From positions 291,247 to 355,246 of the forward strand of contig CP174359.1 in the NCBI GenBank assembly GCA_045401115.1: DNA of 64,000 nucleotides. Direction: 5' to 3'. The notes under the pieces are model-generated. The model saw nothing but the letters and a program-made list of their open reading frames with translations, ran no database searches and was not told where the DNA came from. The translations under genes and the position numbers were made by a program. Every line of letters starts with the position of its first letter. Within the stretch, counting starts at the first letter, position 1. Shown here piece by piece: positions 1 through 43,396 of this stretch. The DNA comes from Candidatus Phycocordibacter aenigmaticus (GTDB lineage: Bacteria; Patescibacteriota; Minisyncoccia; Phycocordibacterales; Phycocordibacteraceae).

Positions 1-258
1 GAGTAGCCCGCAACACATGTTATTCCCCGATACGAGAGTATCGGGGTTTCTACATGTGTCGGAGGCGTGGGATTCGAAAGACGGAGGCGGTATACAAGAC
101 GAGCGGAGCGAGTGCTTGTCGCCGAGTCCGGGCAGGAGCCACACACTAGAATTGGAGCGGAGCGAACAATTATAGTGCTGTGAGCTGACGCCGAATCCCT
201 CACTCTCCGCATCTAACAGCTATCACGAGACATTGTTGTTTCGTGATAGCTTTATTAT
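1..258. other. GC-rich, hairpin-dense non-coding segment (9-bp GC stem with GAGA loop at 25-46 followed by TTTC; long-range complementary arms about 61-76 and 196-212; 11-bp stem hairpin 222-251 just before the ORF at 259). Possible structured RNA, leader or riboswitch-like element; identity unknown
   Basis: No ORF of 60 aa or more in the track. The composition is visibly more GC-rich than its surroundings. The listed inverted repeats were read directly from the sequence. Confidence 0.3.
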
Positions 259-792
259 GTGAGAAATTTTCTAAGAAGATTTATTGGGTGGATTGATAAA
301 ATCATCATCTACCATTACCTAAGTAGTATTTTGGTAAAACTTAGTGAAATAGAAATTTGGATTTTTTCACCGCTCTGCCAAGATATATTTACTGGAGGTA
401 GTGCAGACATGCAGGATGATTTTAATAGAGGTTTATCTAGAGCACCTTGGGGTTTAAAAATAAAGTATTTGAGAGGTGAAAATCTAGACTCTGTTAAGCA
501 TTCAGATGAAAGCTTACAAAGATTAGATGCTGTCAGGCAATTCAATGAATTTGAGGTGCTATTTTCTATGCTTGAAGAGGTGCTGGAAGAAAGAAACCCA
601 TTTATTCATGGAAAATATTTTATGGGATATGGTAATGCAAATGGTATGCGCCTGACTTTTAAAAGTTCGTATCTAAGAGGTAACGGAGTGTGTGAAAATA
701 TTCAGCTTACCCCTAAGACAATAAGAGAACGATATTTAAATTTGAATGAAAATTACAAAGAAATGTTACGACTTTATTTAAGTATTACCTAA
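259..792 (+). CDS. hypothetical protein, AT-rich orphan ORF (177 aa)
   Basis: Intact ORF in the track. Its composition is markedly more AT-rich than neighbouring genes. I recognise no family. Confidence 0.4.
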   Translation: MRNFLRRFIGWIDKIIIYHYLSSILVKLSEIEIWIFSPLCQDIFTGGSADMQDDFNRGLSRAPWGLKIKYLRGENLDSVKHSDESLQRLDAVRQFNEFEVLFSMLEEVLEERNPFIHGKYFMGYGNANGMRLTFKSSYLRGNGVCENIQLTPKTIRERYLNLNENYKEMLRLYLSIT

Positions 793-938
793 CAGTGTTT
801 AATAGTACAAGAGAACCATCAGTTCCACCCTGAGATAGCCTGCACAAAACTCTATTGCGCAACACAATCAGTCTGCTAGTCTTAGAGAATATATAACAAA
901 AATAAACAGCACTTTAATCAAGTTGCACACATCAATAT

Positions 939-34716: not shown

Positions 34717-34787
34717 TGCCGGATCGTCTAATGGCAGGACGCTTGGTTCTGGTCCAAGAAATCGGGGTTCGAGTCCCTGTCCGGCAA
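34717..34787 (+). tRNA. tRNA-Gln (anticodon CTG), U1:A72, 3-bp D-stem
   Basis: TGCCGGA-TC-GTC-TAATGGCAG-GAC-G-CTTGG-TTCTGGT-CCAAG-AAAT-CGGGG-TTCGAGT-CCCTG-TCCGGCA-A. Confidence 0.75.
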
Positions 34788-34811
34788 CTAAGGCCACAAA
34801 CCCGCGATAGG

Positions 34812-34856
34812 GGTTCTGGTCCAAGAAATCGGGGTTCGAGTCCCTGTCCGGCAACT
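34812..34856 (+). repeat. direct duplicate of the 3-prime 45 nt of tRNA-Gln (anticodon loop to acceptor end), att-like
   Basis: GGTTCTGGTCCAAGAAATCGGGGTTCGAGTCCCTGTCCGGCAACT is repeated 22 nt downstream of the intact gene. Confidence 0.6.
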
Positions 34857-34860
34857 AGAG

Positions 34861-34886
34861 AAAAAGCCGCTTTAGCGGCTTTTTTG
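34861..34886 (+). terminator. rho-independent terminator AAAAAGCCGCTTTAGCGGCTTTTTT
   Basis: Read from the sequence. Confidence 0.7.
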
Positions 34887-35201
34887 TTGCCGTACAAGAA
34901 CAGTGCCTGCGCACTGTTCGAGGGACTCGAACCGCCGGAGGCATGTCGCGCGCAGCGGAGCGAGCACGAAGCCGAGGCGTGGCCCGCGGTCGTTATGAAT
35001 TTTCTTACCTTTAGGTAATAAAATGAATTACGAACCGTCAGGCTCTAGCCCTGTCCGGCAGCATCTTAGGGCACCGTGACCGAAGAGGGTCATTGCCCAA
35101 GAACCTATTCTGAAATTGCATACCTGTTGAGTGCAGTAACCAGACAAAAAACCACCCAAATGGGTGGTTTTTTGTTTTTGTCTCTTAAGTTAATTAGCGC
35201 T

Positions 35202-41395: not shown

Positions 41396-43396
41396 ATGGA
41401 TCATTCACATAATCACAATACCCATGCGCCGGGCATGAGCCATGGCTCGGCACAAGATTTCTTACGCAGGTTTTGGATTGTCACATTCCTCTTAATTCCT
41501 CTCATCTTTACCAATGAGATGCTTACCGGACTTTTTGGTATTGGCACGCTTCCGTTTGCTAAATGGGTAGGGCTTGGCATCGCGACTGTAATCTTTAGTT
41601 TCTCACTCGTATTTTTCCAGCACGCGTGGCATGAAATAAAGGCGCGAAAGTACGGAATGATGACGCTCGTTGCTATTGCGGTGGGGAGCGGGTATCTTTT
41701 TTCGGTTGCCTCAACCTTTATATCCGCGCTTGAAGTAGAGTTTTATTTAGAAATCTCAACTTTGATTTGGGTACTCTTGTTCGGTCATTACCTTGAGGCA
41801 CGCTCAAGCTCAGCAGCAGGGAATGCATTACAGGAAGTAGCGAAGCTCTTGCCGAAACAAGCACATAAGTTAGTGAATGGAGTAGAAGAAGATGTAGACG
41901 TTGCCGAACTGAAAGAAAACGATGTGGTGTTGGTAAAGCCAGGAGAGAAAATACCCGCAGACGGCATAGTACAGAGTGGCTCGGCCAACGTGGATGAGTC
42001 GCTCATCTCCGGTGAGTCAAAGCCAATTGAGAAAAATGAGGGAGATGAAGTGGTTGCTGGTTCAATCTGCTTGGATGGTTCGCTTACGATCACGCTCTCG
42101 CGGGTCGGTGAACACTCAACCATCGGCCAGATTCAAAAACTCATTGCTGAAGCCCAAGGTACTAAGCCGCGTTCGCAAAGAATTGCAGATAAAGCATCTG
42201 CCGTGCTCACGTTTGTGGCGGGAATTACTGCGCTTCTCACCATTCTCATATGGTCAGTGTTTTTGGGTGAGTCATTTGTATTTGCGATAACACTTGCCAT
42301 TACCGTCTTAGTGATTGCGTGTCCGCATGCACTTGGGCTCGCGATTCCTACCGTTACCACAATTACTACATCGCTTGCAGTAAAAAATGGTGTGTTCATT
42401 AAAAATCTTGCCAAAATTGAAGTTATCAAGAAAGCAGACTATGTCGTATTTGATAAAACAGGAACACTTACTCTCGGGGAGTTCGGAGTAACCGATGTCG
42501 TTCCATTTGGCAGTCACTCTGAAGAACAGGTACTTGCAATCGCTGCGTCACTTGAACAACACTCGTCCCACATTATTGGACAATCAATTGTCCGTTTTGC
42601 AAAAGAAAAGAAATTAACACTTAAAGAGCCAGAGCAATTCAAAAATGTTGCTGGAAAGGGAATTAGTGGACTGGTCGATGGTCTTCAATACTCCATTGGA
42701 AATGAGGCGTTCCTGAAAGAATTGGGTGTGTTAAACACCCATGCTCACAACCGCTTTGCCAATCTTTCTTCCCAAGGAAAGACGACTATCTTTATAGTAT
42801 TGGAAAAAGAAATTATAGGGCTCATTGCACTTTCGGATGCTATCAAAGAGGAATCATACACGGCAATTGAAAAGCTCCATGATATGGGAGTAAAAGTTGC
42901 CATGCTCACTGGGGATAATGAGAAAGTTTCGCATGGTGTGGCACAGGAGCTTGGTATCGACACGTACTTTGCAGAAGTTTTGCCAGAAGATAAGTACACC
43001 CATATCAAGAAACTGCAGGAAGACGGCAATGTCGTTATTATGGTGGGTGATGGCGTAAATGATGCACCGGCACTTACCCAAGCAGATGCAGGCATTGCTA
43101 TTGGTGCGGGAACTGATGTAGCGGTTGAAGCAGGGGACGTGGTTCTCACACGAAATAATCCGCTCGATGTTGTGCGGCTCTTAAAACTGTCACGCGCTGT
43201 ATACACTAAAATGATTCAGAATCTTGTGTGGGCACTTGGGTACAACATCATTGCCATACCTGCGGCGGCTGGCGCGTTTGCGGTGTGGGGATTCTTCTTA
43301 CGCCCGGAAATTGGCGCTTTACTCATGAGTCTCTCGACAGTCATTGTGGTGGTAAACGCAATGACGCTGAAGAGAGTTAACTTAGAAATTGTGTAA
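41396..43396 (+). CDS. copB: copper-translocating P1B-type ATPase (CPH motif, His-rich N-terminus; CopB-like)
   Basis: N-terminal MDHSHNHNTHAPGMSHGS, TM6 CPH (IACPHALGLA), DKTGTLT, GDGVNDAPAL and the TGES actuator equivalent. Confidence 0.85.
   Translation: MDHSHNHNTHAPGMSHGSAQDFLRRFWIVTFLLIPLIFTNEMLTGLFGIGTLPFAKWVGLGIATVIFSFSLVFFQHAWHEIKARKYGMMTLVAIAVGSGYLFSVASTFISALEVEFYLEISTLIWVLLFGHYLEARSSSAAGNALQEVAKLLPKQAHKLVNGVEEDVDVAELKENDVVLVKPGEKIPADGIVQSGSANVDESLISGESKPIEKNEGDEVVAGSICLDGSLTITLSRVGEHSTIGQIQKLIAEAQGTKPRSQRIADKASAVLTFVAGITALLTILIWSVFLGESFVFAITLAITVLVIACPHALGLAIPTVTTITTSLAVKNGVFIKNLAKIEVIKKADYVVFDKTGTLTLGEFGVTDVVPFGSHSEEQVLAIAASLEQHSSHIIGQSIVRFAKEKKLTLKEPEQFKNVAGKGISGLVDGLQYSIGNEAFLKELGVLNTHAHNRFANLSSQGKTTIFIVLEKEIIGLIALSDAIKEESYTAIEKLHDMGVKVAMLTGDNEKVSHGVAQELGIDTYFAEVLPEDKYTHIKKLQEDGNVVIMVGDGVNDAPALTQADAGIAIGAGTDVAVEAGDVVLTRNNPLDVVRLLKLSRAVYTKMIQNLVWALGYNIIAIPAAAGAFAVWGFFLRPEIGALLMSLSTVIVVVNAMTLKRVNLEIV

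Follow-up and report, generated by a model that had tools for sequence, protein, structure and literature searches.

Much of bacterial diversity is made up of Patescibacteria, host-dependent organisms with tiny genomes, whose acquisition and exchange of accessory genes is poorly understood. The present analysis concerns 64,000 nucleotides (nt) of Candidatus Phycocordibacter aenigmaticus (contig CP174359.1; this whole stretch is referred to as the window), at whose left edge a GC-rich, structured segment is followed by an AT-rich open reading frame (ORF 259-792). We consider it probable that positions 1-845 represent the distal end of an array of mobile gene cassettes, seeded at a tRNA and of a type that occurs in Patescibacteria.

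Structured left edge of the window

Read from left to right, the edge comprises the last bases of a module that we term X, a terminator-like hairpin (h), a folded module (S), a second hairpin (H2), the gene itself and a candidate remnant of a further X module (Table 1). Since positions 1-12 correspond to the end of X, the array continues upstream of the window, as the initial annotation had suspected for its structured element. The order X end, hairpin, S and H2 recurs in two of the loci described below (L007 and L044). Hairpin h opens each S unit, and equivalent hairpins with U tracts, of variable strength, occupy the same place in L005, L007, L008, L011, L013 and L015. A run of 30 nt in the window (GAATCCCTCACTCTCCGCATCTAACAGCTA) recurs without a mismatch across the end and trailer of a genuine tRNA-Ser(GCT) gene (L043).

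Table 1. Features identified in the window (positions are those of the whole stretch).
Feature	Position	Strand	Details
X-type module, last bases	1..12	+	GAGTAGCCCGCA, compared with consensus end ...GAGACAGCCCGCA; X consensus from 41 aligned 91-nt copies
Hairpin h	13..58	+	Outer arms ACACATGT/ACATGTGT; inner perfect 9 bp 25-33/38-46, GAGA loop, UUUC tail
S module, divergent S2 subtype	59..211	+	Closing helix 60-75/193-209; two inner hairpins with loop motif GAGCGGAGCGA (101-111, 155-165)
tRNA-Ser 3'-end direct copy GAATCCCTCACTCTCCGCATC	193..213	+	Part of T-loop, T-stem 3' strand, acceptor 3' strand, discriminator G, junction CCGCA/TC
H2 hairpin	218..251	+	15-bp stem, 4-nt loop, tail TTTATTAT; junction spans 207-251 including H2
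Cassette gene	259..792	+	177 amino acids, GTG start, 32.8% GC
Candidate degenerate, shortened X module, right cassette end	808..844	+	CAAGAGAACCATC resembles X start CTCGAGACACTATC; AGTTCCACCCTGAGATAGCCTGCA matches X end at 17/24
Second S2 module	34886..35063	+	Model R2 (see text) 35.0 bits, E = 2.6e-7; fold z = -3.55

The plus strand of positions 1-260 folds with a minimum free energy (MFE) of -118.1 kcal/mol, as compared with -78.1 ± 4.7 for 200 dinucleotide shuffles (z = -8.47; 0/200 as low), and the minus strand folds less well (MFE -106.7). The core 59-211 by itself reaches -65.9 (z = -4.47). The dense secondary-structure potential noted at the outset for 1-258 is thereby borne out, and the segment is a real structured element. 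Its details were largely recovered as first described: the 9-bp stem with a GAGA loop pairs perfectly and is followed by TTTC, the arms CGGAGGCGTGGGATTC and GAATCCC..TCTCCG pair in the MFE structure of 59-211 and close a domain of about 150 nt, and the repeat of GAGCGGAGCGA is present. The hairpin in front of the gene, initially described as 11 bp within 222-256, does have a U-rich tail, but its stem comprises 15 bp (218-232/237-251). A consensus terminator scan returned it as the sole terminator-like site in 1-1200 (15 pairs, 6 of them G-C; tail TTATTATGTG), in agreement with a terminator-like hairpin at the start of the gene. In our reading, its 3' arm TGATAGCTT resembles an extended -10 box 7 nt ahead of the GTG start. 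The statement that 1-258 contains no ORF holds for real genes; mechanically, an ORF of 52 amino acids can be read at 17-175. With these small corrections the structured segment is confirmed as genuine, all named hairpins and repeats being present. Rfam 15 yielded nothing relevant in positions 1-1000 at E values up to 10, nor in the whole window at gathering scores; sub-threshold matches to snoRNA and miRNA models in the permissive scan were set aside as noise.

The AT-richness ascribed to the gene was reproduced (Table 1), the GC content being 43.3% for the full window and 58.8% for 59-211. Its product has the same sequence as the NCBI hypothetical protein ACJKTH_01565. Among 1.8 billion cluster representatives, seven matched at E <= 0.001, and the five that were aligned comprise three full-length homologues and two fragments. 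Identities of 49-53% along the entire protein, N-terminus included, were obtained for homologues; in the alignment the full-length ones are 29-52% identical and align from the first residues, which identifies the GTG at 259 as the start. No family was found by Pfam and PADLOC at E up to 1, and searches of NCBIfam, PHROGs and PDB sequences were empty; the initial impression that the protein resembles no family thus holds for these collections, although a few homologues exist. The AlphaFold (AF2) model (predicted local distance difference test, pLDDT, 85; predicted template modelling score, pTM, 0.80) is a helical bundle with a three-stranded insertion, and the Foldseek comparison suggested for this protein found no similar fold in the PDB. 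As a real cassette gene, ORF 259-792 belongs to a tiny family without detectable relatives of known function, and in this sense the view of a foreign-looking accessory gene was correct. Ordinary genes follow past position 844, SurA-like and ComF-like phosphoribosyltransferase genes by Pfam and a PilM-like gene as read from its translation.

Arrays behind tRNA-Ser genes

The gene family accompanies the junction: a homologue of ORF 259-792 in another locus (L001) is preceded by S and H2 and followed by X. As in the window, the string upstream of this gene reads GAATCCCTCAC[C/T]CTCCGCATC and is accompanied by a similar hairpin, and a second CCGCATC with a hairpin lies ahead of the next, unrelated AT-rich ORF. 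Loci of this kind were found in genome, metagenome and viral collections by a scan for the exact pattern CCGCATC-N5-GCTANCACGAGRCA. The junction pattern was present in 18 genome stretches and 59 metagenome stretches, i.e. in 77 other loci, nearly all of them labelled Patescibacteria; almost all of the genome stretches belong to metagenome-assembled genomes (MAGs) of Saccharibacteria, Paceibacteria, Kaiserbacteria or Nomurabacteria. Viral contigs and phage genomes contained no copy of the junction, nor of X together with H2. Some array contigs are binned as Flavobacteriaceae, Azotimanducaceae or Patiriisocius (among L002, L009, L013, L016 and L017) and carry typical arrays. L017 (Verrucomicrobia) has no modules and looks like a chance match within coding sequence.

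ARAGORN and Rfam identified the conserved string as the 3' end of tRNA-Ser genes (anticodons GCT, ACT, GGA and TGA; CCA not encoded), and tRNA-Ser genes with this end were located in 14 of the 18 genome loci, as well as in additional loci from metagenomes. The tRNA-Ser gene, with the 3' end ...CTCTCCG-CA, forms the head of the array, and the subsequent units all terminate in CCGCA. Units with an ORF consist of TC-N5, H2, one or a few unrelated AT-rich genes, X and the closing CCGCA. The arms of H2 read GCTAGCACGAGACAC TAT GTTTCGTGCTAGC, usually with a TGnTATAAT-like box 6-7 nt ahead of the start codon; in the commonest layout, GCTAGCACGAGACACTATGTTTCGTGCTAG-TTTTGTTATAAT-N6-7-ATG, an extended -10-like box is placed at leaderless distance. 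Many H2 copies retain the left arm only. According to the module maps, H2-ORF-X is repeated one to four times per array with S units interspersed, and 99 unique H2 junctions follow a tRNA (20), X (26), S (at least 29) or other modules ending in CCGCATC (the rest). Among the latter, two recurrent types were seen just before H2, one ending in ...GGGTTCGAGCAAAGGTTAGTAGTTCACCGCATC and the other in ...GGGTACTTAACCC.AGTGGCCCGCATC, which together span L030, L040, L045, L066 and L071 as well as L037, L056 and L059, so that X and S are not the only boundary modules.

Of 44 unique copies of the X module (GCTCGAGACACTATC...GGTTCTAACTCGAGACAGCCCGCA), 41 measure 91 nt, and the sequence of X is highly conserved across Patescibacteria classes. 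Its start, GC[T/A]CGAGACACTATC, is a direct repeat of the H2 left arm, and its end loosely resembles a tRNA 3' end. RNAalifold found no consensus structure in the 41 aligned 91-nt copies, and X was therefore rejected as a folded analogue of the integron attC site. Twelve of the 44 unique copies are read through by the upstream ORF, which thereby gains a C-terminal tail such as ARDTIKPESENN with a stop codon inside X (examples are the X modules starting at L018 4203, L047 1518, L050 1113 and L060 928); two of the remaining copies use another frame, and in 30 the upstream ORF stops before X. Given that it occurs in these 12 copies only, a role of the X-encoded tail as a functional tag was set aside.

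Further features accompany the tRNA genes themselves. Partial 5' halves of tRNA-Ser (GGAGAGTTGGCTGAGTGG...), followed by other hairpins, lie approximately 100-170 nt upstream of the intact tRNA-Ser gene in L010, L012, L021 and L043. In several loci (L004, L005, L012) the tRNA has a conserved leader ahead of it, GAATTAGTGTTTAGTACACCAACGC...CAGACGAA.GTGCAG. The anticodon ACT (A34), unusual for a bacterial tRNA-Ser, was found at L004 186-273, L005 1962-2049, L011 55-142 and L039 2868-2955.

The cargo of the cassettes is diverse. Pfam, applied to 17 cassette proteins, identified a shikimate kinase, an isochorismatase, an Mrr nuclease, a PCC domain, an LD-carboxypeptidase, a trypsin-like protease and a Cache-HAMP protein besides many orphans; an ORF of 602 amino acids is ABC-transporter-like as judged by eye. 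The mean GC content of the cargo is 35.7%, compared with 42.5% for the flanks, and lies below that of the flank in 14 of 16 loci, so that the composition contrast of the ORF in the window is a general property of the cassettes. Genes flanking the tRNA are housekeeping-like according to their translations (PilM-, HtpX-, malic-enzyme- and sugar-nucleotidyltransferase-like).

S modules and the tRNA end

The S unit has no ORF. It consists of hairpin h and a folded module of ~135-180 nt and is located between other units or directly behind the tRNA. The last ~19 nt of the tRNA are represented twice in S, as their reverse complement in the 5' strand and as a direct copy in the 3' strand. The canonical subtype, S1, has a small hairpin inserted in its 5' strand, and its interior is a three-way junction from which a long hairpin and a short one with a UGUAA loop emerge. 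Seven S1 copies showed compensatory changes at 24 of 38 pairs, and a covariance model built from them (R1) gave more than 50 strong matches. In 45 S1 matches 94.8% of cells pair, compared with 69.5% in shuffled alignments and ~45% with slid partners, and double changes occur at 32 of the 38 pairs (45 copies, E <= 1e-8); the alignment is fitted to its own model, and the margin in pairing is large. The initial annotation had looked to related loci for conservation of its hairpins; within S1 the interior hairpins covary strongly. The excess of G-U (68) over A-C (21) indicates that the plus strand is the folded strand. Canonical S copies (L018) have no match in Rfam, also at permissive E values, and neither ARAGORN nor the Rfam models for tRNA and transfer-messenger RNA (tmRNA) recognised S in the window, in L001 or in the other scanned loci.

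A second subtype, S2, was found in L044, L050, L052 and L005. A model built from the first three of these (R2), with the window excluded, matches window positions 31-211 at 34.6 bits (E = 3.4e-7). The terminal helix is also present in the window (Table 1), and its 3' strand is identical to the tRNA-Ser end in L043. Judged from model score and predicted pairing, 59-211 is a member of the S family, of a divergent S2 type.

Another S2 module was detected within the window at 34886-35063. It lies behind tRNA-Gln(CTG) (34717-34788), a 44-nt partial copy of the 3' half of this tRNA (34813-34856) and a terminator hairpin. In its closing helix the copied 3' end is that of tRNA-Gln (CCCTGTCCGGCA) and not that of tRNA-Ser; the system is therefore not confined to tRNA-Ser. 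The ORF check revealed no gene on the plus strand after this module; the string GCATCTTAGGGCACCGTGAC, similar to a degenerate linker and H2 left arm, follows it (within 34717-35110). The 10-mer AGCGGAGCGA has three copies in 64 kb against 0.03 expected, the third in the tRNA-Gln S module at 34954. All three are located in loops of S hairpins, and the counterpart in S1 is the GAGC-N3-GCGAA loop of the long hairpin. The shared loop motif and the tRNA-matched helices indicate that the interior of S is characteristic of the family, whereas the adjacent tRNA determines the terminal helix.

Known RNAs were considered as an identity for S and rejected. A tmRNA or permuted tmRNA was suggested by a GGAUUCGA-like 5' motif, but ARAGORN and Rfam were negative, there is no tag ORF, the module is multi-copy and its helix is that of tRNA-Ser or tRNA-Gln, not of tRNA-Ala. 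RNase P RNA (string GAGUCCGGGC) had no model match. Retrons, the omega RNAs of TnpB and IscB and IS110 bridge RNAs were excluded since there is no adjacent partner gene and the complementary segments pair with each other instead of forming open loops.

Exchange of units and competing explanations

Comparison of loci revealed exchange of cargo with breakpoints at the tRNA end or CCGCA. L039 and L068 share a 2.8-kb cargo at 96.8% identity, located behind tRNA-Ser(ACT) in one case and behind tRNA-Ser(GCT) and S in the other, with the homology beginning at the tRNA end; the presence of the same cargo behind different tRNA-Ser genes indicates that the units move. S-cassette-X-S is common to L018 and L041 (94%), with homology that ends exactly at the S-terminal CCGCA, beyond which one locus enters the chromosomal flank and the other a further unit. 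In L012 the tRNA is followed directly by H2; in the related L015 and L018 an S unit separates the two. L047 (2287-2400, identical to L072) contains an empty unit at 2315, in which the H2 left arm GCTAGCACGAGACACTAT is fused to an X-like body without a gene; this is the product that would be expected from recombination between CGAGACACTAT repeats. S units also occur in tandem, six of them within 2.75 kb in L050, and with short spacers in L061 as well. The sole transposase seen, an IS30-family-like protein with a PWERGTNE motif, is encoded beside the last H2 of L032 (9303-10301, minus strand) and L034 (1471-2376, minus strand; oriented coordinates). It may represent a palindrome-targeting insertion sequence or a candidate mobiliser.

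We assume that site-specific recombination, or recombination promoted through short homology, would add and remove units, with the CCGCA junction and the CGAGACACTAT repeat common to H2 and X as presumable sites. The enzyme would act in trans. Homologous exchange after natural transformation, for which the conserved modules could serve as portable homology, is a serious alternative for this step. H2 might function as an insulator that terminates upstream transcription and provides the promoter for a leaderless cassette mRNA. S could be a folded attachment partner by which the tRNA end is re-formed when a unit integrates, or else a transcribed mimic of the tRNA top half.

Several established systems share part of these features. 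Like integrons, the arrays consist of mostly single, unrelated and co-oriented accessory genes, include ORF-less units, and have a recurrent separating element of ~60-140 nt and a folded, strand-specific element at unit boundaries. However, they are seeded at a tRNA 3' end and not at attI beside intI (no IntI was found, by crude detection), X is conserved in sequence without a consensus hairpin whereas in attC the structure and not the sequence is conserved, RYYYAAC/GTTRRRY cores are absent, and the units have their own -10-like box instead of depending on Pc. In the pdif/Xer modules of Acinetobacter plasmids, small gene modules without a recombinase of their own are bounded by short inverted-repeat sites and presumably moved by a housekeeping recombinase in trans. 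The present units are likewise small, recombinase-less and bounded by short inverted repeats, but H2 is unlike dif, and the units are co-oriented, linked to tRNA genes and include the long X and S modules. Tycheposons and tRNA-seeded islands of Prochlorococcus have in common with the arrays a full tRNA, including tRNA-Ser, at the proximal end, partial 3' copies between insertions, diverse AT-rich cargo and several seed tRNAs per genome. Tycheposons extend over several kb and contain replication genes and a tyrosine recombinase of their own (bioRxiv 10.1101/2020.12.28.424599), whereas the units described here measure 0.2-2 kb, have no recombinase, are bounded by conserved H2 and X and include S with its inverted copy of the tRNA end. 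Without an adjacent intI, an attC-type X or an element-borne integrase, the array lacks defining features of both integrons and tycheposons. Finally, the terminal helix of S corresponds to the acceptor/T-stem 3' strand with the same discriminator and an unencoded CCA, as in tRNA-like structures (the tmRNA domain, viral 3' tRNA-like structures, mascRNA). In contrast to these, S has no T or D loop, forms a continuous duplex of 16-19 bp past the discriminator, is multi-copy, matches whichever tRNA adjoins and is missed by ARAGORN and Rfam.

The following points weigh against a mobile cassette array at the left edge of the window. No integrase or recombinase was found in cassettes, immediate flanks or the window (Pfam on selected ORFs and crude motif expressions; window and 78 loci), and no circular or excised form was seen, mobility being deduced from comparisons of loci alone. 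The exact-pattern scan biases the loci towards conserved copies, and several of the MAG labels are not Patescibacteria, which may be due to mis-binning. The tRNA-Ser of the array lies outside the window, and the S module of the window is divergent, as it scores 15.4 bits against R1. S and H2 may function at the level of RNA or of single-stranded DNA. The assignment of the right cassette end is tentative as well. Matches to the X end of at least 16/24 occur at just two positions in both strands of the 64 kb (128 kb searched), but a gapped alignment of the whole spacer 3' of the ORF with full-length X was no better than shuffles; 808-844 probably represent a decayed, shortened X, an assignment that for this reason remains tentative. 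The other 17/24 match (43141-43164) falls within the coding region of a P-type ATPase-like protein (GDGVNDAP motif) and is due to chance.

A more far-reaching interpretation is possible but held by us with reserve: the arrays might represent an undescribed, tRNA-seeded and integron-like form of cassette exchange, in which H2 and X insulate self-expressed genes, the ORF-less units specify a new family of structured RNA or single-stranded DNA elements, the helix of S is templated by the host tRNA end, and S takes part directly in integration as a folded attachment site or nucleic-acid specificity determinant. Searches of the literature for the module sequences, for integron-like or tRNA-linked cassettes of Patescibacteria and for tRNA-like elements found no description of such a system.

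Rather unlikely, and compatible with a cassette array, is the possibility that S modules are genes of stable small RNAs that mimic the top half of a tRNA (acceptor and T arm), are cotranscribed with the tRNA, processed by tRNA enzymes and act in trans, for example as decoy, scaffold or charged molecule, with arrays that are akin to clusters of tRNA genes and cassettes as incidental neighbours. The strong covariation and the conserved unpaired nucleotides (UGUAA loop, GUAUACUG junction, GAGC-N3-GCGAA loop), the G-U bias towards the plus strand and the acceptor-like helix with a discriminator G identical to that of the resident tRNA and CCA unencoded as in tRNA genes would fit such RNAs, as would the tandem copies in L050 and L061 and the two terminator-like hairpins that flank S. 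On the other hand, no promoter is visible between hairpin h and the 5' end of S, the terminal helix runs past the discriminator into CCGC and leaves no free NCCA-type end, tRNA and tmRNA models miss S, and the boundaries of S coincide exactly with the recombination junction CCGCA.

We regard it as improbable that the arrays are decayed integrase-bearing islands, prophage- or tycheposon-like, that were serially inserted at tRNA genes, with the repeats as old att sites and the fold of S without function. A full tRNA at the head and partial 3' copies as direct repeats are a hallmark of serial integration, three copies are present at the tRNA-Gln of the window, and the same pattern has been reported from Prochlorococcus islands (bioRxiv 10.1101/2020.12.28.424599). 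However, the units are small and free of integrase remnants, X has kept its length and sequence across Patescibacteria classes, decay would not maintain compensatory changes in the interior of S, and simple integration yields no inverted copy of the tRNA end.

The initial annotation had also considered a defence or addiction module with an RNA component. In a toxin-antitoxin version of type III style, ORF 259-792 would encode a HEPN-like RNase toxin and the upstream RNA would be the antitoxin, which we consider highly improbable. The motif R-N-x-F-[IV]-H is present in the ORF of the window and in P0002, P0003 and P0005, i.e. in all full-length homologues, and as an Rx4-6H-type motif (Rx4H) it makes the protein a candidate HEPN-like RNase, which is only a lead. 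The second cassette ORF of L001 likewise has an R..H motif, the gene is small, AT-rich and patchily distributed, and a terminator-like hairpin separates RNA and gene as in ToxIN. Against this, neither PADLOC nor Pfam matched ToxN/CptN/TenpN or any other known defence family, Foldseek gave no match in the PDB, there is no tandem-repeat RNA (the sole repeat is the 11-nt motif, present twice in hairpin loops), and S modules are not specific to the gene family of the ORF.

The first proposal for the locus, a riboswitch, attenuator or other non-coding RNA in 1-258 that controls ORF 259-792 via the terminator hairpin, finds a structured RNA and a terminator-like hairpin right at the start codon and an inverted tRNA-end copy that may pair upstream or downstream into alternative folds, but it is largely refuted by the distribution of the modules and deserves hardly any credence: Rfam matches are absent even at E up to 10, the same class of module precedes unrelated genes or none (tandem copies, array-ending copies, the gene-less tRNA-Gln copy), the closing helix is dictated by the neighbouring tRNA and not by the downstream gene, the S module of the L001 homologue has a different interior, and H2 is common to ~100 junctions regardless of the gene.

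If the cassette interpretation is correct, the array would be a concrete vehicle for the exchange of accessory genes across Patescibacteria classes, and it would provide a new point of comparison for integrons and tRNA-seeded islands. S modules represent a well-supported family of structured elements that is missing from Rfam and that, unusually, takes part of its structure from the neighbouring tRNA. For the annotation of these genomes, the arrays account for loci in which an orphan AT-rich ORF is located behind a cluster of GC-rich hairpins.

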